Shown here: one piece after another, positions 4,683 through 27,306 of the stretch
Layout of the letters: every line of letters begins with the position of its first letter
Numbering within the stretch: the stretch's first letter is position 1
Source: Anaerolineales bacterium
Lineage (GTDB): Bacteria > Chloroflexota > Anaerolineae > Anaerolineales > UBA4823
DNA length: 64,000 bases
Direction: 5' to 3'
Assembly (NCBI GenBank): GCA_034430155.1
Contig: DAOUET010000048.1
Location: 8,953 to 72,952 of the forward strand
The notes under the pieces: generated by a model
The model's input: the letters and a program-made list of their open reading frames with translations, nothing else
Database searches by the model: none
Told to the model about the DNA's origin: nothing
Made by a program: the position numbers and the translations under genes

Positions 4683-5370
4683 TCTAACTTCTGGCTATGG
4701 CGAAGTGCAGATCCTCTGGGGAGCAAACCTTGCCTCACGGGAAGGAAAATTAACCTCTCTAGTGGGAACTAATGGGGCTGGAAAAACTACCATGTTACGG
4801 ACCATCATGGGTCTCACACGTCCCTGGAGTGGCTCGGTTTGGTTTGAGGGTCAGGATGTAAGCAATCTACCCGCATATACAAAAGCAGAAATGGGATTGG
4901 TGCTGGTTCCTGAAGGACGGCAATTATTCACAGATATGAGCGTGGTGGAAAACCTCGAAATGGGTGCCTCACCCCAGCGAGCCCGCTCCCACTTCAAGCG
5001 CAACCTCGACCAGGTTTACAATATGCTCCCCCGGCTAAAAGAGCGCCAAAATCAGAAGTCAGGTACGCTCAGCGGTGGAGAGCAGCAAATGCTGGCGGTG
5101 GCGCGCGGCATCATGGCTGAACCGAAAGTACTGATGATAGATGAACTTTCCTTAGGCCTGGCTCCAGTTCTGGTATTGCAGCTCTTCGAAACCCTCAACC
5201 AACTGAGATCATTAGGGATCACCATACTACTGGTAGAGCAGAATGTGCAGATGGCCTTAGCGGTGAGCGATTATGGCTATGTTCTCTCCCAAGGCAAAAT
5301 TGAGCTAGAAGGGCCAAGCCGGGAGCTGGCAAAAAACGAGCACGTAAGAGCTGCATATTTGGGAATGTGA
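4660..5370 (+). CDS. livF: Branched-chain amino acid ABC transporter ATP-binding protein (LivF type)
   Basis: Walker A GTNGAGKTT, LSGGEQQMLAVARG signature, Walker B LMIDE. 23-nt overlap with livG. Confidence 0.9.
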   Translation: MAILEIRDLTSGYGEVQILWGANLASREGKLTSLVGTNGAGKTTMLRTIMGLTRPWSGSVWFEGQDVSNLPAYTKAEMGLVLVPEGRQLFTDMSVVENLEMGASPQRARSHFKRNLDQVYNMLPRLKERQNQKSGTLSGGEQQMLAVARGIMAEPKVLMIDELSLGLAPVLVLQLFETLNQLRSLGITILLVEQNVQMALAVSDYGYVLSQGKIELEGPSRELAKNEHVRAAYLGM

Positions 5371-5563
5371 CCCGGCGTCTGAATCCAGGTCTCATACCCT
5401 CATCGGAATAATTCCACTATTTGAGCCCCAGAGAAAACGATATTCTGAAAAAAGCTCTCATCCCAGTCGAAGCATAGGGACCTCCAAAAGTGTCTATCAA
5501 AATTGATACTTGAACCCTCAAATGAAATTGTAGTAAAGAACCCATTCCCTTCAGGAGGATGTT

Positions 5564-6205
5564 ATGTTTGTTGGCGAACGCATGTCACGTCCGGTCATTG
5601 CAGTCCCTCCAGATACACCCATTATCGACGTACTCAATTTAATGAGGCGTGAACGCATCCGGCGCACACCCGTGGTCAAAGAGGGTAAGATGATCGGCAT
5701 CATTTCTGATAAAGATCTGCTGAACGCTTCTCCATCCCAGGCCACCTCGTTGAGCATATGGGAGATGAATTATTTACTGAGCAAGATTAAGGTGAAGGAC
5801 ATAATGACCAAAGAGGTTCTGACTGTCCAGGAAGACACACCCATCGAAGAAGCCGCCCGCATCATGGCAGACAATAAGATTGGAGGCCTACCGGTGATGC
5901 GTGACGGGCATGTAGTTGGGATCATCACGGAAACAGATCTGTTTAAAATATTTTTAGAGTTGATGGGGGCACGTGAATTGGGCGTTCGGGTAACTGTACT
6001 CGTGCCTGATAAACCCGGGCAATTAGCCAATTTGACTCAAGTTATCGCCACCCTGGGTGGAAATATCATTGCATTTGGCCAGTTCACGGGTGAAGATCCA
6101 TCTAACCGGCTGGTGACATTCAAAGTTGCCGGATTGGATGAAGCTAAGGTAGAAAAAGAAATCGGACCCATCGTTGAAAAGCTCATCGACGTGCGGTCCT
6201 GCTGA
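5564..6205 (+). CDS. CBS-pair plus ACT domain protein (AcuB-like)
   Basis: Two CBS repeats (VKEGKMIGIISDKDL; VMRDGHVVGIITETDL). The C-terminal VTVLVPDKPGQLANLTQVIATLGGNI is ACT-like. RBS AGGAGGA lies upstream. Confidence 0.8.
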   Translation: MFVGERMSRPVIAVPPDTPIIDVLNLMRRERIRRTPVVKEGKMIGIISDKDLLNASPSQATSLSIWEMNYLLSKIKVKDIMTKEVLTVQEDTPIEEAARIMADNKIGGLPVMRDGHVVGIITETDLFKIFLELMGARELGVRVTVLVPDKPGQLANLTQVIATLGGNIIAFGQFTGEDPSNRLVTFKVAGLDEAKVEKEIGPIVEKLIDVRSC

Positions 6206-14473: not shown

Positions 14474-15553
14474 TTAATCTCCTGTCGCGTAACGGATCTG
14501 GATATTTCCGATGGCCTGGCTGGCTTCCAGATCGATCCGGGAAGCTGATGTGGCGTAGGCTGGGGAGGAGTAGAAGTCCCCTTCTTTAATAAAATCTTGG
14601 GGGACATTGATGTTCGCCAAGCCGGTATCCGCTTTGACCCTAAGAGCGGTGCCTGGCGGAACGATAACTTCGATCTGGCCGATGGCGCTATCGATCTTGC
14701 CCTGGAATCGCCCACCTTTCGGTAAGGTAAGGGTGGTTTTCCCAACACCCATATCCACCTGCAAAGCGCTAAGGTCCAAGGTGGTCAGATCAAGATCGAT
14801 ATTACCCGCCCCCATGGTTACCTTCAAATCAATGGGGATAGCTGCTGATAAGCCTAACTTCCAACCCCACTCACCAGCGGTCCCAAAAGGGTAACCAACA
14901 AATGAAGTCCCCGTTCTACGCAGCGTGTAGGTGCCCGTATTTCCAGTCACGGAATACGACTGACTCACCTGCCCTGCATTGCCAAGCCTTATATTCCCGC
15001 TAACCAGAAGATCCGGTCCTGAAAGGGTATCGATCAAAATAGAACCGACTGCGGGCTCGATCACCACCTTTGCATGGCTGGCAGCCTGCAAAGGTTGGCT
15101 GATTTGCTCGCTGGACAATGCCTGACCTCGATCTACCGTTATACCGTACGCCAACAAGGCTCCTGCCAGGAGAGCCAAAACCACGACCAAACCTACTAAA
15201 GACCACCAAGGCGAGCGGCGATGACCAATGGCGATATCAAGGCCGATGGCAACCAGCAGAATTGGCCATAACCTAATAATCGCAATCCACACATCCAAAG
15301 CCAGGTACCCCAGGTTACTCAATAAGAAGACAAACCCCACCCCGATCAACAAAGCCGGTCCAACGATGCCCTCTCTCCGGAAAACGGCATCTAACCCCCA
15401 AACGACCAGCAATAGCGGCCAAAACCTGGCGACCAAATCCCAGATATTACCAGTCAACACTCCAAAATTGTTCAGCAAAAAAAGCAACCCAAGGGCAATC
15501 AATAACAGCGGGAAGAATAAACTTCCCCGGTATCTGGGCTTTCTTGCGTTCAT
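14474..15553 (-). CDS. LiaF-like envelope-stress membrane protein (DUF5668-type TM repeats plus C-terminal toastrack/DUF2154-like beta domain)
   Basis: Repeated LLIALGLLFLLNNFG / LLIGVGFVFLLSNLG TM hairpins. C-terminus GAGNIDLDLTTLDLSALQVDMGVGKTTLTLP...GQIEVIVPPGTALRVKADTGLANINVP. Confidence 0.7.
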   Translation of the reverse strand: MNARKPRYRGSLFFPLLLIALGLLFLLNNFGVLTGNIWDLVARFWPLLLVVWGLDAVFRREGIVGPALLIGVGFVFLLSNLGYLALDVWIAIIRLWPILLVAIGLDIAIGHRRSPWWSLVGLVVVLALLAGALLAYGITVDRGQALSSEQISQPLQAASHAKVVIEPAVGSILIDTLSGPDLLVSGNIRLGNAGQVSQSYSVTGNTGTYTLRRTGTSFVGYPFGTAGEWGWKLGLSAAIPIDLKVTMGAGNIDLDLTTLDLSALQVDMGVGKTTLTLPKGGRFQGKIDSAIGQIEVIVPPGTALRVKADTGLANINVPQDFIKEGDFYSSPAYATSASRIDLEASQAIGNIQIRYATGD

Positions 15554-15674: not shown

Positions 15675-16313
15675 TCACCGATGCAAAAGAAAGGTGCGGA
15701 AGATGAAATATAACCCGACAAGAATCAGGGCAACCGGCCAGATGTAATTAACCAACGATGTAAGCGCGGCCAGTAGTACCAAACCGATCAAGAACAATAC
15801 CCCCGCCGGGATAAATGCCCAACGCATTTCTCCACGGGGGCCTGGCAATATCGCCACGAGCCCAAAGGTCAATCCCAGGCCCAGGAAGAAGATACCCCCT
15901 GTCTCAAAGCCCGCAAAGAATTGATCCAGGAAGGATACTACAGCCAGCGTAACCATCACTCCAGCCGGGATTATCGCCCACCAGTTCTCTCGATTTGTAG
16001 CATAGACTGCCAAGAAAGCCAGACCGATGCCACCCAATACGATCACACCGCTCCAGATGTCAGCTAAGCTCGGGAACAAAGTTTCCAAGAAGATTGTTAC
16101 AGCCAGCACCAACAGGATGATCCCAGGGATCAAGGCCCACCAGTTTTGACGGTCAGCAAAGTAGACCGAGAGAAACCCAATTGCGCCGACGCCGAGCAAT
16201 ACTCCCCAGAAGACGTCGCCGATGGCAAGAACCCCCAGGTTTTGAAGTAAGAAGATGATTCCACCCACCATCAATAAAAACCCCCAAAGCGTGCGTGACC
16301 AGAGCCATTTCAT
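15675..16313 (-). CDS. Polytopic membrane protein made of DUF5668-like TM repeats, with no soluble domain
   Basis: Three internally repeated units, each with NWWALIPG / NWWAIIPAG / MRWAFIPAG. N-terminus GGIIFLLQNLGVL. Confidence 0.6.
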   Translation of the reverse strand: MKWLWSRTLWGFLLMVGGIIFLLQNLGVLAIGDVFWGVLLGVGAIGFLSVYFADRQNWWALIPGIILLVLAVTIFLETLFPSLADIWSGVIVLGGIGLAFLAVYATNRENWWAIIPAGVMVTLAVVSFLDQFFAGFETGGIFFLGLGLTFGLVAILPGPRGEMRWAFIPAGVLFLIGLVLLAALTSLVNYIWPVALILVGLYFIFRTFLLHR

Positions 16314-16415: not shown

Positions 16416-17969
16416 TTAGCGACTGTGACCTAATGCGGTCCTGATCAATTCCTGTTTTAAATCCCAGAGCTGCTTGGTAAGGGAGACATGATAGATATGC
16501 GGATTCATCAGACGCCTGACACCGGCATCCAGCCTCTCAACGTCAGATCTTCTGCGGGCGCGCATTTCTTCGATGGTGGGGAGATCATAAACCAACCGGC
16601 CCTCAGCCAACACTTCCACCAGCAAAGGTTCTATTTCAGTAGCCTCATCTTGGGATAAATATCTCATCTTAGTCGGCTCCGAAGGATGGTGCAAGATTAT
16701 GACATCCATTTCATTGGGGTCCTCATCATCCAAACTCAGCAAATCTGCCGTGGCTTTACCTCTGCGATCGTAGATACGCCAGACGTGTTTATGGCCCGGG
16801 TTGGGAGTCTTGTCTGAGGATTCCGACACTTTTATAGCAGGCACCCATTGGCCTCCATCCTGCACAGCGACGAGCTTATAAACGCCCCCAAGGGCAGGCT
16901 CTCCCCAGGAAACGATCAAACGAGTGCCAACACCATATACCAGACGGTTAATGAGCTGATCGGGATCGACCTCATAACGCCGGGACTCTTGCTCTATTTG
17001 AGTCAGGATCTGCCATATAGTAAGCTCATCCAGGTTGTTGGATAGCACAATGGAAGCATCAGGGAAGCCAGCTTGGTCCAACATCTTAGCCGCCTGAATG
17101 CTGAGGTATGCCAAATCTCCTGAATCGAGCCGAATACCAACCGGATCATATCCCTTACGTCGCAGCTCTTCAAACACCTTGATGGCATTCGGCACGCCGC
17201 TCTTAAGGGTATCGATCGTGTCAACTAATAGCAGACAATTATCTGGATAAACATCTGCATAAGCACGAAAAGCATCTAACTCACTACCACCTAAAGCGAT
17301 AAAGACCTGCACCATACTGTGGGCATGGGTGCCTTTGGGCGGATAGCCGAGAAAGTGGGAAACACCCACATTCGAGCTGTAATCTGCCCCGCCTATAAGG
17401 GCGGCGCGCGTGCCGGCATTGGCACCTTTATCCTGACCACGGCGCAGGCCAAATTCCAACAAGAGCTTCCCTCGGCCGCTGTCGTGAATGCGGGCTGCCT
17501 TTGTGGCAATCAGGGTTTGGTAATTCAAATGGTTAAGCAAAGACGTTTCCAGAATCTGTGCCATCGCCAAAGGTCCTTGTATCACAGTCAAAGGCTCATT
17601 GGGATGGACTACCCGGCCCTCAGGGATAGCACGCATGGTTATCCCCTGAAAATTGCCATTTGCCCTCAGCCAATCGAGAAAGTCATCCGAGAATACCTGC
17701 TTGCCGCTACGATCTTTCTGGCTCTTTAATGCCTCGATATCATCCTGACGGCATTGAGCGGATTGGAGCCATGCCAGCAGCCATTCCAGACCCGCATTGA
17801 CACAATAGCCAGCTTTATGCAGCCCGTAATCAGGGTAATCACGGAAAAAATGATCAAACTGCACTGTTTTCTCGTGTAAACCCACCCGGAAATAGAGCTG
17901 CGCCATAGTGAGTTGATACTCATCGGTGAATAAAAAACCTTCGGTAATTTTCCAGTCACTCTTTTGCAT
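16416..17969 (-). CDS. pncB: Nicotinate phosphoribosyltransferase
   Basis: [15 protein letters not shown]-terminus, [27 protein letters not shown] motifs. 517 aa. Confidence 0.9.
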
Positions 17970-18041: not shown

Positions 18042-18848
18042 TCAGCGGATGTCGACTGAGCCGATCCCAGTTTCTACAAGCATTTCGATCTTATTGGATG
18101 CGGTATCATAATCCGCCGATCGATATTCGCCGCCGACACGAGGAAAGCGATTCTTATCAATGGTTGTCCCTGACAAGCCGCTCTTTACCCGAATATGAGC
18201 CGCCACGCCAGGGGGGATGCGGATCTTCAGAGCAGCCAAGCCCGATTCGATTTCAGCCCGGGTATGACCAGCTTTGGCAGGCACGGTCAGAGTAGTTGAG
18301 CTGGCGCCAGTTTGCAGTTTCAGATTGGTGACCTGCAACTCGGAGAGGTCTAAGCGCGTATCATTAGCCCCGACACTTATGTTAAGAGCGACTGGGATGT
18401 TGCGGTTCAACCCAACCGTCCAATCATATTGACCCGGGCTCCACGTCCAGGGAAAAACCATGAAATGATCCTTCGGACCACGCATATCAACTTCGAGGGT
18501 ATCGCCATCATGTTTAGTTTTGAAATCTAACCCAGCGCCAAAAGTACCTTGCATTAAGGTGCCTGATCCAGCACCGGCAGCAAGCCTAAATCGTCCGGCC
18601 CCGTGTTTGAGGCGAATCTGAGCTCGTGAGGCGCCTTCCAAGGGTATCTCGACTTCTTCGCTAGCGACCGAGCGCCTTGTGAACAGGGTACCCCACAAGA
18701 TCCACAAGCCAAGCAATATGATGATCGTCGGCCAGATCAAGTTCCAGATATTCACCCCCAAAGCGTTCAACAGACCGAGATTCTCCAGCAATAGAAAAAC
18801 ACCTACCAGCAACAGCACTGACCCCCAGAATAAGTCGCCTCTCCTCAT
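18042..18848 (-). CDS. LiaF-like membrane protein (one DUF5668 TM pair plus toastrack-like domain)
   Basis: GSVLLLVGVFLLLENLG TM. C-terminus GANDTRLDLSELQVTNLKLQTGASSTTLTVP...ALKIRIPPGVAAHIRVKSGLSGTTID parallels 14474-15553. Confidence 0.7.
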   Translation of the reverse strand: MRRGDLFWGSVLLLVGVFLLLENLGLLNALGVNIWNLIWPTIIILLGLWILWGTLFTRRSVASEEVEIPLEGASRAQIRLKHGAGRFRLAAGAGSGTLMQGTFGAGLDFKTKHDGDTLEVDMRGPKDHFMVFPWTWSPGQYDWTVGLNRNIPVALNISVGANDTRLDLSELQVTNLKLQTGASSTTLTVPAKAGHTRAEIESGLAALKIRIPPGVAAHIRVKSGLSGTTIDKNRFPRVGGEYRSADYDTASNKIEMLVETGIGSVDIR

Positions 18849-19417: not shown

Positions 19418-21196
19418 ATGATTGAAAGGCTTAGTTTAACCGTGACGATCCCAAACCCGAATCTCGCTTTTTCAGCAGCACAAGACTTCCAACGCGCCCG
19501 GAGAAAAGCTGCATTGAAAGAAATCATGGCGCGCCTGACTGGAAAATCGATCGGTCTGCTTTCTTACGAGGATGTCCGCAAGAAACTCAGAGCTCATCCA
19601 AGTGGAACCAGAGTTCTACAAGACATTCCCTTGGATGCGATTGCCGGCAGTGTTGGCCGTTATAACGATTTCACCCGCGATTTCCTGCCATTGAAGGATA
19701 TGAACCAGGATCGTTGGGTAAGGATAAAAAGCGCTATCAGCGATTTGAGAGGTGTTCCCCCGATTGAGGTCTATCAAATCGGCGAGGTATATTTCGTGAT
19801 GGACGGCAATCATCGCGTTTCCGTGGCGCGACAGATGGGGGTGCCCCAAATTCAGGCATATGTGACCGAACTGAAAACCAGAGTGCCGCTCAGCCCAGAG
19901 GTTAAACCAGAAGAATTGATCATCAAAGCCAGGTATGCGGAATTTTTAGAGCACACTCGTTTAGATGAACTTCGTCCAGGGGCGGACCTGAGCGTCACTC
20001 TCCCTGGGAAGTACAGGGTGCTCGAAGAGCATATTCGAACTCATCGTTACTTCATGGGGAATGAACAGAAAAGAGAAATCCCTTATGAACAAGCCGTCAG
20101 CCACTGGTATGACAATGTGTATATGCCTGTAGTCGAGGTCATCAGGGAACGTGGGCTATTGAAGGATTTTCCAGAGCGGACAGAAACCGATTTATATTTG
20201 TGGATCATGGAACACCGCGCTGCTCTTGAAGAAGAAATCGGATGGGAAGTCAAAACCTCAATGGCAGCCAGTGATTTATTAGAACAATATGGTAGTAATC
20301 ACGAGAATCTGGTCACCCGGTTGGGGGGAAAGATCCTGGAGGCGATCGTACCAGATGAGTTAGAACCCGGCCCTCCACCAGGCGAATGGCGCCGGATAAA
20401 ACAAACCGAAGAAACTTCAATTGAAATCGATGGCCAATTATTCAAGGACCTGCTGGTGCCAGTCAGCGGGGAAAAGCACAGCTGGCGAGCTTTAGATCAG
20501 GCATTAATCATTGCCCAACGTGAAAAAGCCCGTCTCTTGGGATTGCACGTGGTAAGCTCTAAAGATGATCTGGACGCGACTTATTTGGAGGCCATCCAGG
20601 AGCAATTCGAACTGCGCTGCCAGCAAGCCGGTGTTCCCGGCAAGCTATCCGTTGCAGCCGGCGCTGTTTCAAACCAGATCTGCCAGCGATCAAGATTTTC
20701 TGACCTAATCGTGGTCAGTTTGGATTATCCACCAGCAGCTCAACCGCTTTCCAGGCTGAGTTCAGGCTTTGGAAGCATCATCCGGCGTTGCCCGCGACCA
20801 ATTATGGCTGTTCCAGGAGAGCCCACTTCTCTCAACAGAGCATTGCTGGCATTCGACGGCAGCCCCAAGGCAGAAGAAGCCCTCTACCTGGCCACCTATC
20901 TGGCGGGAAAGTGGCGCATATCTTTGTCAGTGATAACCGTCTTGGATAACGGTAAAGTGACTCATAAGACCCTAAAGCGAGCTCAGAAATACATTGAAGC
21001 ACACGGAGTGCCTGCGAAATACCTAAAAAGCAAAGGTATTGTGGCGGAAGAGATAATGAAAGCTGCAGAAGCCCAGCAGATTGACTTGCTTATCATGGGG
21101 GGTTATGGAGCGGCTCCGGTCATGGAAGTTGTGCTGGGTAGTTCCGTAGACCAGGTACTGCGAGAATCACGCCGGCCGATATTGATTTGTCGCTAA
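19418..21196 (+). CDS. ParB/Srx-like N-terminal domain, one helical DUF4032-like module, and tandem universal stress protein (USP) domains
   Basis: PPIEVYQIGEVYFVMDGNHRVSVARQMG (DGNHR at 19802-19816). LPGKYRVLEEHIRTHRYFMGNEQ...PYEQAVSHWYDNVYMPVV...TETDLYLWIMEH. USP-like LLVPVSGEKHS... and LLIMGGYGAAPVMEVVLGSSVDQVLRESRRPILIC. Confidence 0.75.
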   Translation: MIERLSLTVTIPNPNLAFSAAQDFQRARRKAALKEIMARLTGKSIGLLSYEDVRKKLRAHPSGTRVLQDIPLDAIAGSVGRYNDFTRDFLPLKDMNQDRWVRIKSAISDLRGVPPIEVYQIGEVYFVMDGNHRVSVARQMGVPQIQAYVTELKTRVPLSPEVKPEELIIKARYAEFLEHTRLDELRPGADLSVTLPGKYRVLEEHIRTHRYFMGNEQKREIPYEQAVSHWYDNVYMPVVEVIRERGLLKDFPERTETDLYLWIMEHRAALEEEIGWEVKTSMAASDLLEQYGSNHENLVTRLGGKILEAIVPDELEPGPPPGEWRRIKQTEETSIEIDGQLFKDLLVPVSGEKHSWRALDQALIIAQREKARLLGLHVVSSKDDLDATYLEAIQEQFELRCQQAGVPGKLSVAAGAVSNQICQRSRFSDLIVVSLDYPPAAQPLSRLSSGFGSIIRRCPRPIMAVPGEPTSLNRALLAFDGSPKAEEALYLATYLAGKWRISLSVITVLDNGKVTHKTLKRAQKYIEAHGVPAKYLKSKGIVAEEIMKAAEAQQIDLLIMGGYGAAPVMEVVLGSSVDQVLRESRRPILICR

Positions 21197-21217
21197 CCCG
21201 ATTTAAGAGATCTCCCT

Positions 21218-22549
21218 TTATTCCTTCTTTTTGCCCTTCTTTTTCAAGACTTCTACCGCCTTTTTCACCGGATCCGGTGAAAAATCCTGCTTAAAGTGCT
21301 CGGCAGCCTGCTCAATGGGCACCTGAGCTCCAAAGATTTCTCGCAGTTCCTCCAGGTGTTCAATAATCCATAGATACAGGTCGCTCTCCGTCCTACCTGG
21401 AAATTCCTCGATTATGTCTTGGTCCCGAATGAGCCTTACCAGAGGAGAGTAAACATGGTCATACCAAGATGTAACTGCCTCCTGGTAGGGGACTTCAGTC
21501 TGCCTTTGTTCACCCAAGTACCAGCGATGGACGCTGATGTGCTCAAGGAGACGTTGGTAGAAACCCGGCATGGTCAGCTCAACATGCGCTTCTGGGCGGA
21601 GATCAATAAGACCGGTGCGTTTAAGGAAGTCGGTTTTTTCCTGCTCGAGGATCAGATAATCAACCCAAACAGCACGTTTTAACAGGTTGATCAATTTAGC
21701 TACTGGCCATTCCGCAAAATCTTCGATGAAATTCTTGGCAGCGTCATTAAAAGTGAAGTCTTCTTTATAGGCCTCCCTTAGGTACCACAAGTATTCGATT
21801 ATCCACAAATACAGGTCAGCGCAGGTTCTATTTGGAAATTGCTCAGGAAGACCTTGTTGCTTGATCTGTTGGACAACAGGTATATACACATTGTCGTACC
21901 ACGAGGCAACCGCCTCTTCATATGGAACTTCAGCCCGGCGCTGTTCTCCAAGATACCAGCGGTGTACGTTGATGTGTTCAAGAAGCCTGTCATATTCACC
22001 TGGCAGGGTGAGCTCAATTTGTGCTGAAGGGCGGATTTTTGGCAGGTTTGTCATTTCGATGAAGATAGCGTATTCGCGCTTTAAATCGAGATCGCCGATT
22101 TGGGTATCAACCGTCAGCGGCACCAGAATATCGATTTCGGTTACATGGGCATCCACAAATTCTTGGCCGCGCTCACGCGCTACCGAAACACGGTGGTTAC
22201 CGTCTTTAACAAAATAAACTTCCCCCATCTTATACAGCTCCACCGGCGGCAGAATAATATCCCGATGATGGGCTTTGTCGATGCTCACCCAGCGATCCTT
22301 GGTGTGTAGCTGGCGGGGAAGAAAAGCGCGGTCGAAATCGCGATAGCGCCCCAAGCTCCCAACAATCTGGTCAATTCGCACTTGCCTCAATCCGAGATCA
22401 TGCTGCCCTCGCAAAGGCAATCGATCCCGTACCTCATTAAAAGGCAACAATTCATTGTTTTTACCCGTCATCCAGGCCACAACTGTGCGCCAAATCGCTT
22501 TAAAGATAGCGCGTTCATAGTCCTGATTTGCTAAATTATCATTTGTCAT
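21218..22549 (-). CDS. ParB/Srx-like N-terminal domain plus two copies of the DUF4032-like helical module
   Basis: PPVELYKMGEVYFVKDGNHRVSVARERG. Two repeats of LPGxYxRLLEHIxVHRWYLGEQRxxEVPYxEAVxSWYDxVYxP...DLYLWIIE(Y/H). Lys-rich tail. Confidence 0.75.
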   Translation of the reverse strand: MTNDNLANQDYERAIFKAIWRTVVAWMTGKNNELLPFNEVRDRLPLRGQHDLGLRQVRIDQIVGSLGRYRDFDRAFLPRQLHTKDRWVSIDKAHHRDIILPPVELYKMGEVYFVKDGNHRVSVARERGQEFVDAHVTEIDILVPLTVDTQIGDLDLKREYAIFIEMTNLPKIRPSAQIELTLPGEYDRLLEHINVHRWYLGEQRRAEVPYEEAVASWYDNVYIPVVQQIKQQGLPEQFPNRTCADLYLWIIEYLWYLREAYKEDFTFNDAAKNFIEDFAEWPVAKLINLLKRAVWVDYLILEQEKTDFLKRTGLIDLRPEAHVELTMPGFYQRLLEHISVHRWYLGEQRQTEVPYQEAVTSWYDHVYSPLVRLIRDQDIIEEFPGRTESDLYLWIIEHLEELREIFGAQVPIEQAAEHFKQDFSPDPVKKAVEVLKKKGKKKE

Positions 22550-22588
22550 ACCAATGTAATCCTAACCCTTCGATCCTGAAGAGGTTTT

Positions 22589-23341
22589 TTATTTTAAGAT
22601 GAAATCCTTTTTCTTCCCTTTCCCTTCAATTGAACCGGTCTTGAAGAGCCATTCCTGCTCCGATCTTTTACCCCGATTTAACATACCAAGTGGCGCCCAT
22701 TCGCCTGAGGAAGGAAAGACACTCGTTTCCGCATATCCATAGGAATTGATCACGGTCGTGGTTTGAAATCGTGTTTTGGTTTCAGTATCCGGTCTATACA
22801 CGTGAATGTGACCGTGAAAGTGGTAGGAGGGTTTGAAGACCTTGAGCAACCATAAGAAGGCATCGATGCCCTGATGGGGCAAATCGGTTTTATCATGGAT
22901 TCCTTTTGGGGGTGCATGGCTGATAAAAATGTCCAGGTAACGCCCATAGACCGCTCGATTAATCAGCAGTTGAGGCACCAGGGTCAGGACGTTGAGCCAC
23001 ATATCCGCTTGGGAATATTGAAACGGTCCTTGGCTATAACGCAAACTGCCCTCGACTCCTGCCAGCAGCAGTCCCCGGTGTGAGACCACCTTGCGGTGTA
23101 AATCAACAGCTCCTCTCGGGCTGGTGCGGGGACCAGTCACGGTATGCTCCACCACGCTGGCGTGATTTCCGCGCACAAAGTAGAGAGGGACATTAAGGGT
23201 ACTGATAATATATTCAAGATAATAATAAGGCAAATCTCCACAGCCGATCACCAGATCAACATCGTTAAAGCGCGCATGAATCTGCGGGCTATAAATGAAA
23301 TTTAGGAGGGTATCACTGAGCGATAGAACTTTAATGGACAT
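22589..23341 (-). CDS. Calcineurin-like metallophosphoesterase
   Basis: Motifs VIGCGDLPYYY, VRGNHAS, FISHAPPKG and FHGHIHVY. 39 nt upstream of, and co-oriented with, 21218-22549. Confidence 0.85.
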   Translation of the reverse strand: MSIKVLSLSDTLLNFIYSPQIHARFNDVDLVIGCGDLPYYYLEYIISTLNVPLYFVRGNHASVVEHTVTGPRTSPRGAVDLHRKVVSHRGLLLAGVEGSLRYSQGPFQYSQADMWLNVLTLVPQLLINRAVYGRYLDIFISHAPPKGIHDKTDLPHQGIDAFLWLLKVFKPSYHFHGHIHVYRPDTETKTRFQTTTVINSYGYAETSVFPSSGEWAPLGMLNRGKRSEQEWLFKTGSIEGKGKKKDFILK

Positions 23342-23389
23342 AAGATATAACTTCGCAATCGTCGGTTAACACAGATAATACGGAACCAG

Positions 23390-23418
23390 CTTATACCCTC
23401 TTTGACTTTACCTGTCAA
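23390..23418 (-). promoter_or_regulatory. Sigma-70-like promoter for the metallophosphoesterase / ParB-like operon
   Basis: On the minus strand: TTGACA (23418-23413), 17-nt spacer, TATAAG (23395-23390). About 50 nt upstream of ATG 23341. Confidence 0.45.
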
Positions 23419-23765
23419 CAACTACAGGGCCCACGACATGAGACCTGGTTACAATTAGATGGATTTGGGTGCATGGGTGTGTTCTTAGTTCCCGCTAGAA
23501 CCTCCAGAGGTGACCTTGATCACAGGATTTCAAAAAGTCCAGATATCCCATATCTTCTCTCAAAAGGCCTTTTTGACAAGCCTAATTGGCTAAATTTTCA
23601 CCGCAGACCGCTATTGATGCTGGTCAAGGTGGGGGCGCTACCTTGAAACAAGACATGATTTCGCCAGTTTCTTCACTTTCACGACTCGCTGTTGATAGAA
23701 CCAAGCAACGCTATCTCAGGCAGCTACCAGGCAGAATCTATCATCCCCCAGGGTGTCACCTTCCC

Positions 23766-23972
23766 TTATCGCCGTACTTCTCCCTCAATTTCCATATGCA
23801 AACTTTCCTGCGGAGGCGAATCCCCGTAATCGGTCAAATCCTCAAGCGCCAATCTCAGGTGCAGCGGATGGTGACCGGGGAAGCGCTCGATATGAGCTGT
23901 AATCACCTCGTCGGCTAAAATGCCAAAGTTCTTTAGCAACTTGCGGATATCATTTCGAATGGTATCATCCAT
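23766..23972 (-). CDS. Small hypothetical protein (68 aa)
   Basis: Composition looks like a real protein (MDDTIRNDIRKLLKNFGILADEVITAHIERF...LEDLTDYGD). Preferred over the overlapping plus-strand ORF. No family recognised. Confidence 0.45.
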   Translation of the reverse strand: MDDTIRNDIRKLLKNFGILADEVITAHIERFPGHHPLHLRLALEDLTDYGDSPPQESLHMEIEGEVRR

Positions 23973-24008
23973 GATCGAATCCTCCGGACGAAATCAGATG
24001 GTTAAAAG

Positions 24009-25001
24009 ATGATGAACTATTTTCAAGATCAAAAACTTATTGACAAAGATAGCTCTTTATTGCCCCTATTGGAAGATGTCGATTTTGAACCCATTTTTAT
24101 TCTGGGAGATCATCGATCAGGGACAACTATATTGTATCAACTACTCACCTCTACCCAGTTCTTTAACTACACCAGTTTTTACAATATCACGAGATACGAG
24201 CAGATGCTCTATAATCGCGTCATTGGGGCGACCGAGGATGCTAAAGAAGAATTAGGACAATTGCTGATATCGTTAGGCGTGGAGGACCGTACTTTCGATA
24301 GGATAAAAGTCTATCCAGATCTTCCCGAAGAGTATGGATACATCCTGTGGCGGAACGCTCCATTCTGGTATCTTCCCCGCCTCAATAGAAGGAATTTGCC
24401 TAATCTTATCAACCTCAGCAAGAAAGTCCAGTTTACCCAGAGTCCAGCAAGACCCATGTTGCTTAAAGGTCCCTGGGATTTTCCTAACTTCAGGTTTGCC
24501 AAAGGCGCGATACCATCCGCTCGCTTTATTTTCATCCACCGGCAACCCCTGCGGGTCATTAATTCCAAACTCAAAGGCATGCGATCCGCCCTTGCCAAAA
24601 AGAACCCTTACACTGCGCTTCTGGCCCCCGGCTATGCGCGGCTATTTCGAAGACCTTTACAACTCTTTCTGGCCAGAATCTTGTTTTCCTCCCGTTTCGG
24701 TATCGGTCTACATTTGCTCACTCAACATAGCCTGCAGGCAATCAAATATTTCCTTGAGTACATCGGCTCTCTTTCCTATGAAGAACATATTTCCATAAGG
24801 TATGAAGATTTATGCCATGACCCGGAGATGACCATCAACAGGATACTTAAACACTTCGGATTACATGTAAAAAAGAATTTAGCTTACGACGCGTTGATCA
24901 GACCGCGCTCCCCCAACTTTTTGCCAGAAATTAAACAAAATTACAAACAGATACAAAAGCGGCTGGAACCCGTGCTCTCTCGTTACGGCTACAGCATGTA
25001 A
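24009..25001 (+). CDS. Sulfotransferase-family protein
   Basis: ILGDHRSGTTILYQLL resembles the 5'-PSB PAPS-binding loop. A later FIFIHRQPLRVINS segment resembles the 3'-PB region. Confidence 0.7.
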   Translation: MMNYFQDQKLIDKDSSLLPLLEDVDFEPIFILGDHRSGTTILYQLLTSTQFFNYTSFYNITRYEQMLYNRVIGATEDAKEELGQLLISLGVEDRTFDRIKVYPDLPEEYGYILWRNAPFWYLPRLNRRNLPNLINLSKKVQFTQSPARPMLLKGPWDFPNFRFAKGAIPSARFIFIHRQPLRVINSKLKGMRSALAKKNPYTALLAPGYARLFRRPLQLFLARILFSSRFGIGLHLLTQHSLQAIKYFLEYIGSLSYEEHISIRYEDLCHDPEMTINRILKHFGLHVKKNLAYDALIRPRSPNFLPEIKQNYKQIQKRLEPVLSRYGYSM

Positions 25002-25043
25002 GGTCGCCTTTACCCCAAGTTCCATAAGGATCAAGCCCAGTCG

Positions 25044-25074
25044 ATAAAAGCTGCACCAATGGAGCAGCTTTTAT
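25044..25074. terminator. Bidirectional hairpin terminator between the sulfotransferase and PPTase genes
   Basis: ATAAAAGCTGC (25044-25054), loop ACCAATGGA, GCAGCTTTTAT (25064-25074). A/T runs on both flanks. Confidence 0.6.
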
Positions 25075-25107
25075 TGCGGTATTGTTAAAAACCCCTAGAA
25101 CAAATCC

Positions 25108-25860
25108 CTATGCTTCAGCCCATTGCCAACAGTGCAAGGACAGATGACGGTCATTAATCGCCAGGGCTGCGACATAACCCGGCTCAGGATCCAAATGGAA
25201 TAAAGACCACTTCTTGGCTTCGGCCATATCTCCCTGGATCGCGAAAATTGCAGCCGGTTCTTGTTGGTTTAGGGTAACGTCAAATTGGTCCAGTGGGAGT
25301 GAAAGCCCCTGACCTCTCGCTTTGATAAAAGCCTCTTTGCGCGTCCAGCATGTAAAAAATGCACGTTCCCGCAGGCCATCTGGGACGGATTGCAGATCGG
25401 CGACTTCCCGTTTCGAAAAGAAACGCCTGGCGAGCTTTTCTCCTGCAACATTGGGACGGATCCTCTCCACATCTACTCCCACCAGGCGATCCCAGGTCAC
25501 CGCGATTAAGCCCAATTCATGGGAATGAGATAAATTGAAAGTCAAAGCCTCTTGACCATAACCAGAGACCAGTTCAGGTTTCCCATAGGAATTGTATTTA
25601 AAACGCAACTGGGACGGTGCCACGCCCAAATAACGAGCGAGGATATCCCTGAGGCAACCACGAGCCGCGATATAGCGCCTGCGGCCCTTTTGGAATTTGA
25701 AATTATCCGACCGTTCTAATTCATCTTTGGATAAACTGCGACGCAATCTCTCAATGCTTAAAGATCCCATTCCCAAGGATATCCGCCAGAGATGGATTTC
25801 ATCTTGTGCCAATTTTAGCCCTGTGGTGGGTGTTTTCCAATCAATCCCGGACGAGTCCAT
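25108..25860 (-). CDS. 4'-phosphopantetheinyl transferase, Sfp type
   Basis: GKPEL, FNLSHSHELGLIAV, VGVDVERIRP and WTRKEAFIKARGQGLS motifs. Confidence 0.9.
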   Translation of the reverse strand: MDSSGIDWKTPTTGLKLAQDEIHLWRISLGMGSLSIERLRRSLSKDELERSDNFKFQKGRRRYIAARGCLRDILARYLGVAPSQLRFKYNSYGKPELVSGYGQEALTFNLSHSHELGLIAVTWDRLVGVDVERIRPNVAGEKLARRFFSKREVADLQSVPDGLRERAFFTCWTRKEAFIKARGQGLSLPLDQFDVTLNQQEPAAIFAIQGDMAEAKKWSLFHLDPEPGYVAALAINDRHLSLHCWQWAEA

Positions 25861-25917
25861 AATTCTATTACATAAATTTGTGGTTTAAATTCCCCTGTAA
25901 GCGAATCAACAGACCTC

Positions 25918-26222
25918 TTAATTGAATGAGGGAGTGAAAAATTCCGAGATCCCAACTAGCGTGTCCCCGCCACACAACATTTTCAGGTTCCCAGGGGGGT
26001 GCCAGCCAGGGTCAAGCAGCATACCATCGCTGGCGGTCTCCTGGCTAGCTATCACTACTTTCGCTCCCAGGGTAAGTGGAAGGTAGAGCTTAAGTCCGGT
26101 GATATCAAAGGAAAGGGTCGTAACTGTTACCAGTATATCATTACCATGCATCCCTGATTCTTCCTGCATGGCATGCAAAATGTTGACAACCGCTGGCCTG
26201 CACCCGGTTTTTGTACCACTTT
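25918..26222 (-). pseudogene. Remnant of an NRPS/hybrid-PKS adenylation domain (A3-A5 region, with internal deletions)
   Basis: ESGTKTGCRPAVVNILHAMQEESGMHGNDILVTVTTLSFDITGLKLYLPLTLGAKVVIASQETASDG...GW..GNLKMLCGGDTL matches the SGSTGxPKG...VVN...TTLSFDISxLELxLPLxxGAxVV...LxCGGEAL pattern. Only about 100 aa remain, with gaps, and it is bounded by the IS fragment. Confidence 0.65.
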
Positions 26223-26830
26223 CTATATTAGTCCAGCCCGCTGAAATTGGGAAGGTTGCGACACGGTCGCAGCGGGTACTTGTGGACGATAGCCCAGTGC
26301 GCTCTGCGGCTTGACGGTGTTGTACTGCTGCCTCCACCTCTCGATCATAACCTGCGCCTCCTTCAGCGAACAGAAGATCTCTATTGCCAACAACTCGTTT
26401 CGCATCAATCCATTTAATGACTCAATGTAACCATTCTCCCAGGGGCTGACCGGTTCGATGAAGAGTACCTTGACGTCCAATCTCTTCAACCAAGCTCGCA
26501 CTCGTTTGGCGGTGAACTCCGAACCGTTGTCCGAACGTAGATGGGCGAGTACCCCCCGCGCACAGAACAGCTCAGTCAGCACTTCCAGTATATCCTGAGG
26601 TTTCAGGCTACGCACGACCCGCACGGCCAGACACTCACGAGTGTACTCGTCAATGACATACAGGATGCGAAATTTGGCGCCATTATCCGTGTGATCTTCC
26701 ATGAAATCATAACTCCAGACATGCTTGGGAAATTCAGGTCTCAAACGCACGATTGAGTCGTCATTGAGCCATAATCGTCCAAGTTTGGGCTGCGTTGCAG
26801 GCATGCTGAGACGTAAATGGGATGTAAGCT
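26223..26830 (-). mobile_element. IS3-family-like DDE (rve) transposase fragment (OrfB core only)
   Basis: KLGRLWLNDDSIVRLRPE..HVWSYDFMEDHT..GAKFRILYVIDEYTRECLAV...LRSDNGSEFTA...PWENGYIESLNG...YNTVKPQSALGYR. The N-terminal HTH/OrfA part is missing, with an in-frame stop about 45 nt upstream of the ATG. No terminal inverted repeats recognised. Confidence 0.75.
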
Positions 26831-27128
26831 GTTGGTTGGAATCCGATGCTCAACTCGTTAAGGTTACTGGCGCGCATAAAATATCCCGGATGTAACATGT
26901 AGCTTTAGGGAGCGAGGGGGGATCGCACAAATGATTTTCGACTACGGGGGGAGAAATCGCCGATATGCTACGCAGACATCCCGAAGTAATTGAGCAAGAC
27001 TGAGTTGAGGTAAATTGACAAAAGTGGGGGAATCCCAATAATCCCGGCCGGTGAATATCCATCCCAGATCGTGAGGTTAATATGCCGATAAATCACGGTG
27101 ATGCTTGATTCACCAAAAACGGTCTCAC

Positions 27129-27157
27129 TTGACAACGCACTTTTACTGTGCTATTCT
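27129..27157 (+). promoter_or_regulatory. Sigma-70-like promoter upstream of the S41 peptidase gene
   Basis: TTGACA (27129-27134), 17-nt spacer ending in TGC, TATTCT (27152-27157). A second TGCTACAAT box lies at 27249-27257. Confidence 0.5.
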
Positions 27158-27306
27158 CACGCCCATCCCTGAATAGCCGGAACCGATGGTTATCTCAAAG
27201 TTTTTCCTTTTCCCATTCATACCTCCTAACAAACTTCTCTCCCATTAATGCTACAATCATTATCTATATTTTTGCACTAAATTTATCAGCCTCACCCTAA
27301 AAAATT

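Follow-up and report, generated by a model that had tools for sequence, protein, structure and literature searches.

A divergent ParB/Srx-like protein family with DUF4032 modules, encoded with a metallophosphoesterase in Chloroflexota

We analysed a stretch of 64,000 nucleotides from an Anaerolineales bacterium (Chloroflexota; NCBI GenBank assembly GCA_034430155.1, contig DAOUET010000048.1, positions 8,953 to 72,952 of the forward strand), hereafter called the window, in which two convergent paralogous genes, paralog A and paralog B, lie next to a gene coding for a metallophosphoesterase (MPE). Both paralogs code for an N-terminal domain (N-domain) with a divergent ParB/sulfiredoxin (Srx) fold, followed by one or two modules of the Pfam family DUF4032 and, in paralog A, by two universal stress protein (USP) domains. 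The conserved unit is the MPE gene followed by a ParB/Srx-DUF4032 gene, and not the pair of paralogs. We propose, with a probability of roughly 0.4, that this unit constitutes a nucleotide-gated phosphodiesterase module, in which the MPE would be the effector, the ParB/Srx-DUF4032 protein the regulator, and USP or LOG domains would provide an additional input. What is new is the divergent ParB/Srx clade, together with the domain order of its proteins and the MPE as their constant partner; the domains themselves belong to known superfamilies.

The conserved gene pair

An MPE gene of the window's subfamily is located directly upstream of an N-D or N-D-D gene (N, ParB/Srx-like N-domain; D, DUF4032 module), on the same strand, in 49 of the 71 loci with enough upstream sequence, and is fused to it in one more (L022), giving 50 of 71. 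These 71 belong to the best 80 of at least 600 stretches with the motif FVxDGNHR[VI]S in a collection of one genome per species (GTDB), the set to which the locus counts refer; open reading frames (ORFs) were called in all loci and searched with profiles made from the window domains. The commonest spacing between the two genes is -4 nt, a 4-nt overlap, and the arrangement spans Anaerolineae, Chloroflexia, Herpetosiphon, Ktedonobacterales, Thermomicrobiales and Sphaerobacterales. Look-ups seeded with N-D-D genes retrieved the MPE directly upstream in four of four cases and those seeded with the MPE retrieved the partner downstream in two of two. Two independent fusions were identified, MPE-N-D in L022 and MPE-N-D-USP-USP in P0267, the latter confirmed by Pfam. 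In an all-against-all clustering of the ORFs, antisense shadow ORFs aside, no other family was present in more than 16 of the 80 loci; a neighbour cluster with members in 65 loci was rejected as a partner, being made of such shadow ORFs. The MPE is kept while the other neighbours vary across several classes, and thus the pair persists while its surroundings change.

The position of the USP paralog is much less constant. It is convergent to the N-D-D gene in the window, in a relative with 87% identity (L003-5) and in 5 of the 19 GTDB N-D-D loci (L008-L010, L012 and L013), and is not adjacent to it in L001, L002 and L006, nor in most other loci; this adjacency is limited to one Anaerolineae subclade. 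The first-pass annotation of the window had linked the two paralogs and the phosphoesterase: the link between the MPE and the minus-strand gene came out stronger than a single sequence could reveal, and the co-location of the paralogs held in that one subclade only.

It is nearly an even bet that the convergent paralogs act independently, their adjacency being what a duplication or rearrangement left behind in particular lineages, and that the minus-strand gene alone works with the MPE. The restricted adjacency is in line with this explanation, as is the occurrence of USP-type genes alone in L070, L072 and L076. In a neighbour-joining (NJ) tree of N-domains, 22 of the 29 USP-fused members fall in one clade, and the two window genes therefore represent an old split into subfamilies and not a recent duplication. 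Nevertheless, the USP subfamily is also tied to the MPE, since the P0267 fusion exists and, in L082 and L085, an MPE gene and a USP-type gene converge, and the 44% identity between the two paralogs would allow heteromers.

The N-terminal domain

The AlphaFold2 (AF2) model of paralog B (pLDDT 79.3) was searched with Foldseek, and 47 of the 50 top PDB matches are named ParB, Noc, KorB, PadC, Spo0J, sulfiredoxin or SbnI, with probabilities up to 1.00. The lowest E-values were obtained for Noc and ParB, and the best local matches, by probability and root-mean-square deviation (rmsd), are Srx and SbnI (Arabidopsis thaliana Srx, probability 1.00, rmsd 3.7 Å over 92 columns; SbnI 5uje, probability 0.99, rmsd 3.1 Å over 87 columns; SbnI 5ujd, 31% identity over 39 columns). 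In BFVD, a library of viral structures, the matches of the same model are mostly annotated as ParB/Sulfiredoxin.

Profile alignments point in the same direction. With a 42-sequence N-domain profile as query, hhalign placed LPPVELY...DGNHR on VPPIDVL...GGCHR of human Srx (P 6.4e-4), and FLPR...DGNHR on Box I (YQPR) and Box II (GERR) of Bacillus subtilis ParB (P 5e-4), the human Srx and B. subtilis Spo0J reference sequences being identical to the deposited PDB chains. The phosphate-binding G-x-x-R motif is, in these alignments with Srx GGCHR and ParB GERR, in register at the strand-helix junction.

The ParB/Srx core of paralog B (aa ~46-141) comes after two helices at the N-terminus, and the invariant residues are G64, S65, R68, F72, F76, P78, W87 and D116-G117-N118-H119-R120 (nt 22190-22204). 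Among 100 representatives with 41-64% identity, residues F72, P78, W87, V114, D116, G117, H119, R120 and S122 are invariant, and the residues of the Box I- and Box II-like motifs are the most conserved of the family. As modelled, the N-domain has a divergent version of the ParB/Srx fold, and its pocket is under selection. The domain lies outside Pfam ParB_N, is not a canonical ParB and is not a sulfiredoxin, since the catalytic cysteine of Srx, in (F/S)GGCHR, is replaced by Asn118 (by histidine in some relatives).

The comparison with the known members of the fold helps to define the family. With sulfiredoxin it shares the minimal core; it differs in ~45 additional N-terminal helical residues, in an inserted invariant GSxGRYxDF segment, and in being fused to DUF4032 and USP domains and encoded with the MPE, no peroxiredoxin context having been seen. 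With the CTP clamps ParB, Noc and KorB it shares the fold of the N-domain and the two boxes, whereas it has no threshold match to PF02195, no helix-turn-helix (HTH) domain, no C-terminal dimerisation domain and no conserved ParA neighbour, and carries acidic DUF4032 modules after the N-domain. The kinases SerK and SbnI are close in structure, but there is no significant sequence match to them, the C-terminal domains are others, and no serine, cysteine or siderophore genes are found in the neighbourhood.

Weak Pfam matches among 100 diverse relatives comprise five to ParBc_2 and three to ParB_N (best ParB_N E-value 0.056), third and fourth in frequency after DUF4032 and Usp; ParBc_2, which we take to be the Pfam family of the SerK/SbnI kinases, is the commonest of these weak matches. 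A close homolog of paralog A has a precomputed match labelled 'ParB_N (weak)'.

DUF4032 modules

Paralog B matches DUF4032 (PF13224) with 51 bits in three stretches, above the gathering cut-off of 23.8, as do many relatives; paralog A stays just under it, with 21.3 bits, and its module shares 42% identity over 128 aa with module 2 of paralog B (BLASTP, E 2e-33). The matches differ from the Pfam family as defined, since they cover only model positions ~75-163, one to three times per protein, and the N-terminal half of the model is never matched in the family. Across 195 modules, mainly aromatic residues are conserved, together with H192, H196, T242 and D245. The modules are acidic (pI 4.7-5.1) and, judged from their sequence, look like helical modules that bind a ligand, a metal or a protein rather than DNA. 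A tblastn search of plasmids with the two DUF4032 modules returned no match.

The best viral Foldseek match of the whole paralog B model is BFVD A0A8S5LUW4 (E 1.3e-7, 296 aligned columns), a 491-aa protein of Podoviridae sp. ctC2p8 that bears the annotation of a PnrA-like fragment. This protein may hold both an N-domain and a DUF4032-like helical part, because the match is far stronger than the other viral and PDB matches.

The metallophosphoesterase

The 250-aa protein encoded upstream of paralog B matches Pfam Metallophos (PF00149) with 31.9 bits (cut-off 21.5). Its AF2 model (pLDDT 82) matched, in Foldseek, the uncharacterised COG2129 proteins aq_1956 (2yvt) and TT1561 (1uf3), as well as the RNA-lariat debranching enzyme Dbr1 and MPPED2, with E-values of 1e-8 to 7e-7 and TM scores of about 0.55-0.60, in agreement with the fold of the family, and its homologs are named 'Icc-related predicted phosphoesterase' in JGI. 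Of the five metal-binding motifs of calcineurin-like enzymes (DxH, GD, GNH[D/E], H and GHxH), GD, GNH, GHxH and His142 are invariant, as in those relatives; motif I, in contrast, has only Asp10 and no histidine (D10-T-L), the subfamily carries an invariant GDLPYYY, and a PDB sequence search returned only spurious matches to repeat proteins. Purple acid phosphatases have an Fe(III)-ligating tyrosine in a GDxxY motif, and Tyr39 of the MPE, within GDLPYYY, would sit in the same position.

USP domains and other C-terminal fusions

Pfam Usp (PF00582) was detected in two stretches of paralog A (74.3 bits). The motif G-x2-G-x9-G-S (GGYGAAPVMEVVLGS), which corresponds to the G-x2-G-x9-G-(S/T) of ATP-binding USPs of the UspFG type, is present in the second of these domains only, which is predicted from it to bind ATP; the same ATP motif is found in the second USP domain of 18 of the 29 USP-fused members and in none of the detected first ones. 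The USP pair occupies the position of the second DUF4032 module of paralog B and, in P0228 (486 aa), a LOG/SLOG domain (Lysine_decarbox / LDcluster4) stands where the USP pair normally stands.

Other fusions were observed once each: P0253 (328 aa) carries a partial GHMP_kinases_C domain and is possibly a chimeric gene call, and P0249 (656 aa) is fused to an alpha/beta hydrolase of the dienelactone hydrolase (DLH) type. The single fusions to GHMP_kinases_C, PRK and DLH were set aside as functional hints, being isolated cases.

Size, range and architectures of the family

At least 6436 homologs of paralog B were found in a word-indexed database. A search with the N-domain alone retrieved 3527 cluster representatives (clustering at 50% identity), of which 2187 had E<=1e-10, and these numbers place the observation far beyond chance. 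The sources of 76 of the 80 loci have names of Chloroflexota lineages, and the range includes Anaerolineae, Chloroflexia, Herpetosiphon aurantiacus DSM 785, Bellilinea caldifistulae, Thermoflexales, Ktedonobacterales, Thermomicrobiales and Sphaerobacterales.

A census of 150 representatives with our own hidden Markov models (HMMs; L, linker; U, USP; M, MPE) recorded 70 proteins with N only, many of them fragments, 49 with N-D, 11 with N-D-D, 12 with N-D-(L)-U-U, three with N-D-D-U-U, one with N-D-D-D and one with M-N-D-L-U-U (P0267). Some family genes are split, namely in L008:8273-10013 (-), with a U-U plus an N-D part, and in L093:4191-5494 (+), with pieces of 55, 150 and 245 aa; these splits are frameshifts or assembly errors, and the genes are possibly pseudogenes.

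In viral contigs the family is all but missing: five partial matches at the level of the motif were all that was found, and the similarity of phage proteins to the family spans only about 41 residues. In IMG/VR, a 653-aa phage protein (L089:4797-6758, +) has a 'YFVxDGNHR' Srx-like domain joined to the adenylation and OB domains of an ATP-dependent DNA ligase, and a stand-alone 'YFVxDGNHR' protein of 160 aa (L088:4659-5141, +) is encoded beside a weak match to a 2-oxoglutarate-Fe(II) (2OG-Fe(II)) oxygenase (5146-5769, +), a gene pair reminiscent, by analogy, of the published ParB-dependent T-dioxygenases.

Literature searches for DUF4032, for PF13224 and for ParB-like nuclease with Chloroflexi found nothing relevant, which agrees with the first-pass statement that this architecture has no assigned function. 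A 2025 survey of the ParB-CTPase fold, with PF02195 as query, is silent on DUF4032, USP, metallophosphoesterase and Chloroflexi (PMC12704722). A survey seeded with PF02195 would miss the family, because PF02195 does not detect it.

Proposed mechanism and alternatives

In the proposed module, the MPE would be the catalytic effector, a small binuclear metallophosphodiesterase that is probably co-transcribed, and often translationally coupled, with its partner, and the ParB/Srx-DUF4032 protein would be an NTP-binding regulatory or substrate-presenting subunit of this phosphodiesterase. A nucleotide bound in the Box I/Box II-like pocket would switch the conformation or the oligomeric state of the complex, and this switch would control whether a phosphoester, probably in a nucleotide or a nucleic acid, is hydrolysed. 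The versions with USP (or LOG) domains would add an input of nucleotide or energy state, and ATP bound by the second USP domain would report the energy or stress state of the cell. The data show the domain identities, the fold as modelled, the conserved pocket, the conservation of the operon, the fusions and the taxonomic range; we infer the binding of a nucleotide, the physical complex, the direction of the regulation and the kind of substrate. The proposal agrees with the tight coupling of the two genes, the fusions, the selected pocket, the variable sensor slot and the lack of a DNA-binding domain, and with published examples of ParB-fold activators of enzymes (PMC13229309) and of ParB folds whose ligand can be ATP or GTP besides CTP (PMC12704722).

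The phage protein ParB176, encoded with the T-dioxygenase 5mYOX176, has a ParB fold without an obvious DNA-binding domain and is needed by the co-encoded enzyme (PMC13229309), and DpdB, encoded with DpdA, is likewise reported to be a ParB-fold protein of this kind, required for the activity of the neighbouring enzyme (PMC10164549). Both may serve as a working analogy for the partnership with the MPE, a ParB-fold protein standing beside an enzyme. The resemblance to them was seen at the level of the fold, the partner here is a metallophosphodiesterase, and the pair is chromosomal and phylum-wide, whereas ParB176 and DpdB belong to phages and defence islands.

Several observations weigh against a nucleotide-gated phosphodiesterase. 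Since PF02195 matched neither paralog at E<=0.1, and its threshold was not reached, the fold call rests on structure prediction and weak profile signals; the Foldseek E-values for ParB and Srx are modest (best 2.4e-3 in the PDB), and no ParB or Srx was found among PDB sequences at E<=10 with the paralog B sequence, the full-length profile or the N-domain profile. The role given to DUF4032 is a guess, because no structural relative of this part was detectable among the 50 PDB Foldseek matches listed for the full-length model of paralog B. The MPE is absent upstream in 21 of the 71 loci, USP-type genes usually have no MPE directly upstream, and adjacency conserved within a single phylum can partly reflect vertical inheritance. 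Finally, neither the model nor the present data separate a role of the ParB/Srx domain as a switch from one as a catalyst, and, according to the fold survey, nucleotide specificity in the ParB fold is not reliably predicted by sequence or AlphaFold3 (PMC12704722).

Catalysis is the core of the main competing explanation, in which the ParB/Srx domain would itself be an ATP-dependent phosphotransferase, like Srx or the free-serine kinases SerK and SbnI, DUF4032 would bind the substrate, and the MPE would be a phosphoesterase that opposes the transfer or carries out the following step. In Srx and SerK it is the gamma-phosphate of ATP that is transferred, and in bacterial Pnkp a kinase is combined with a phosphatase of the MPE type; by analogy with Pnkp, such a kinase/phosphoesterase pair could act on small molecules, on side chains of proteins or on the ends of nucleic acids. 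The local structural matches to Srx and SbnI, the alignment of LPPVELY and DGNHR with the Srx motifs, the prevalence of ParBc_2 among the weak Pfam matches, the resemblance of the MPE to Dbr1 and MPPED2, which act on RNA and nucleotides, and the phage DGNHR-type domain fused to a DNA ligase are all consistent with it. We nonetheless consider a phosphotransferase unlikely, at perhaps one chance in four, as the catalytic cysteine of Srx is replaced by asparagine or histidine, no substrate candidate is conserved among the neighbours in the 80 loci, the phage similarity is so short, and a kinase encoded with its own phosphatase needs further explanation.

A role on the chromosome, with the paralogs acting as ParB-like DNA-binding or nuclease proteins in partition, nucleoid organisation or DNA nicking, seems very improbable. 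In its favour, two homologs bear the JGI name 'uncharacterized ParB-like nuclease family protein', Noc and ParB gave the lowest Foldseek E-values, the N-domain of paralog A has a basic pI of 10.05, and C-terminal tails rich in lysine are present in many homologs. These tails, however, are not conserved, the DUF4032 modules are acidic, and the arginine pair of GERR is changed to NHR. Pfam detected neither an HTH nor any other DNA-binding domain in paralogs A and B, and when the full-length profile was aligned with B. subtilis ParB by hhalign, no similarity appeared past the N-domain and nothing pointed to an origin of DUF4032 from the HTH domain of ParB; no parA-like neighbour is conserved in the 80 loci. 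The DNA-associated role that the first-pass annotation had considered is, given the acidic modules and the lack of an HTH, unsupported. Its other suggestion, a nucleotide-sensing module, stays plausible.

Least probable of all, to the point that we would be surprised by it, is an anti-phage defence or toxin-antitoxin-like conflict system with the MPE as effector and a ParB-fold sensor, for although PDC-S10, a candidate model of PADLOC, has a match in the MPE (E 2.6e-12) and ParB folds are reported from several defence systems and CDI toxins, the ParB/Srx-DUF4032 proteins match no PADLOC model, the surroundings are housekeeping genes (nicotinate phosphoribosyltransferase (NAPRTase), 4'-phosphopantetheinyl transferase (PPTase), RRF and UppS) with long-range synteny, and the family is widespread and vertically distributed in Chloroflexota and essentially absent from viral contigs and plasmids.

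A bolder reading can also be formulated, in which the family would be a functional class of the ParB/Srx fold that spans the phylum and has so far gone unrecognised: a non-DNA-binding Srx-like NTP switch or phosphotransferase would form an obligate pair with a Dbr1/COG2129-type MPE in core Chloroflexota physiology, tuned to the nucleotide state by USP or LOG domains and maybe linked to the metabolism of 4'-phosphopantetheine or 3',5'-ADP. We regard this reading as speculative, and somewhat less probable than the phosphotransferase; the tie to 4'-phosphopantetheine or 3',5'-ADP is a hint taken from the recurrent linkage with PPTase genes described below.

The locus and its surroundings

The genes and domains of the window are listed in Table 1. 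The stops of the convergent paralogs are 21 nt apart, with no intrinsic terminator found in this gap, and the stop of the MPE gene is 39 nt before the ATG of paralog B; in BLASTP, the two paralogs align over 283 aa at 44% identity (E 2e-77). The first-pass annotation had given these ORF coordinates, gaps and peptides correctly, and had recognised the paralogy, the calcineurin-like phosphoesterase upstream of the minus-strand gene, the tandem USP domains of the plus-strand gene and the DUF4032 modules, one in the plus-strand and two in the minus-strand gene, all of which our searches bear out. Of the Pfam families it had named for a check with HMMER, PF13224 and PF00582 were found and PF02195 was not, while its ParB/Srx assignment of the N-domain is supported by AF2 with Foldseek, BFVD and hhalign. 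It had also read a promoter upstream of the MPE gene: the string TTGACA-17-TATAAG is indeed there, its promoter status being that of a consensus match, and a promoter scanner passed over it, its second hexamer having G as the last letter. The window proteins occur verbatim, and nameless, in NCBI, JGI and Logan assemblies, and an NCBIfam search with them gave nothing useful.

Table 1. Coordinates of the genes, domains and other elements in the window.
Feature	Position	Strand	Basis
Paralog A, 592 aa: ParB/Srx-like N-domain, one DUF4032-type module, linker, two USP domains	19418..21196	+	ORF, Pfam, own HMM (NDUU)
Paralog A N-domain, aa ~11-160; DGNHR aa 129-133 (nt 19802-19816)	19448..19897	+	BLASTP to paralog B N-domain
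Paralog A DUF4032-type helical module, aa ~165-295	19910..20302	+	Pfam PF13224 aa 213-289, BLASTP
USP domain 1 of paralog A, aa ~342-465, without ATP-binding glycine motif	20441..20812	+	Pfam, motif check
USP domain 2 of paralog A, aa ~472-592, with G-x2-G-x9-G-S (GGYGAAPVMEVVLGS)	20831..21193	+	Pfam, motif check
Paralog B, 443 aa: ParB/Srx-like N-domain, two DUF4032 modules, Lys-rich tail	21218..22549	-	ORF, Pfam, BLASTP, AF2
Paralog B DUF4032 module 2, aa ~296-425, pI 4.73	21275..21664	-	Pfam, BLASTP, pI
Paralog B DUF4032 module 1, aa ~156-285, pI 4.85	21695..22084	-	Pfam, pI
Paralog B N-domain, aa 1-148	22106..22549	-	Foldseek, hhalign, conservation
MPE, 250 aa, COG2129 / Dbr1 / MPPED2-like; first gene of the MPE -> ParB/Srx-DUF4032 operon	22589..23341	-	Pfam, AF2, Foldseek, conserved position
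Promoter-like TTGACA-17-TATAAG upstream of the MPE	23390..23418	-	sequence reading; consensus match only
Sfp-type PPTase, 1.8 kb upstream of the MPE	25108..25860	-	Pfam; possible clade-limited associate

A PPTase gene is located directly upstream of MPE-N-D in 15 Anaerolineaceae species, with ends that overlap or nearly abut (L021-L025, L029, L031, L033, L036, L038, L040, L042-L044 and L050; e.g. L021:5867-6286), and in the window, L001, L003 and L006 an Sfp-type PPTase gene is found on the same strand, at a distance of 1-5.5 kb upstream. PPTases release 3',5'-ADP, as does the sulfotransferase encoded at 24009-25001 of the window, and this may or may not relate to the substrate of the MPE.

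No replacement enzyme was found in the loci without the MPE, where the upstream genes code for a malic enzyme, an adenylate cyclase-AAA-TPR protein, a phosphoribosyltransferase (PRTase), a MiaB-like protein or an esterase. In two of them, L066:2861-6883 (+) and L073:2895-6944 (+), from a Roseilinea and a Thermoflexales metagenome-assembled genome (MAG), a large zinc-ribbon/adenylate-guanylate cyclase/AAA_16/TPR protein is encoded directly upstream of the N-D gene, on the same strand.

Between the sulfotransferase gene and the promoter-like element of the MPE, the window has a 68-aa ORF (23769-23972, -) with no Pfam match; genes of the same length, in the same relative position and divergent from the sulfotransferase gene, were observed in L001, L003, L095 and L096, and this ORF may be a conserved small protein. 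The region 23342-27300 also contains a 193-aa fragment of an rve-type integrase core (26223-26804, -; also 25918-26337, -), and the radical-SAM, ketoacyl-synthase and TMEM260-like genes present between the sulfotransferase and MPE genes in L003 are missing from the window, which suggests a rearrangement or deletion associated with an insertion sequence (IS). On the other side of the paralogs, three LiaF-like/toast-rack membrane proteins (14474-15553, 15675-16313 and 18042-18848, all -) flank the NAPRTase gene (16416-17969), a set that is syntenic in L003 and partly in L001.

Significance

The MPE and the ParB/Srx-DUF4032 protein form a well-defined and widespread uncharacterised system that is open to testing. 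Views of the ParB/Srx (ParB-CTPase) fold are shifting towards a general module for NTP binding, with roles well beyond chromosome segregation. This family, with its thousands of members, appears to be core to a major phylum that has received little study, and its partner enzyme is clear and can be tested. The nucleotide and the substrate of the MPE, once shown, would give a function to DUF4032, to this COG2129 subfamily of MPEs and to a new ParB/Srx clade, and a regulatory or repair pathway specific to Chloroflexota could emerge from the function of the family.

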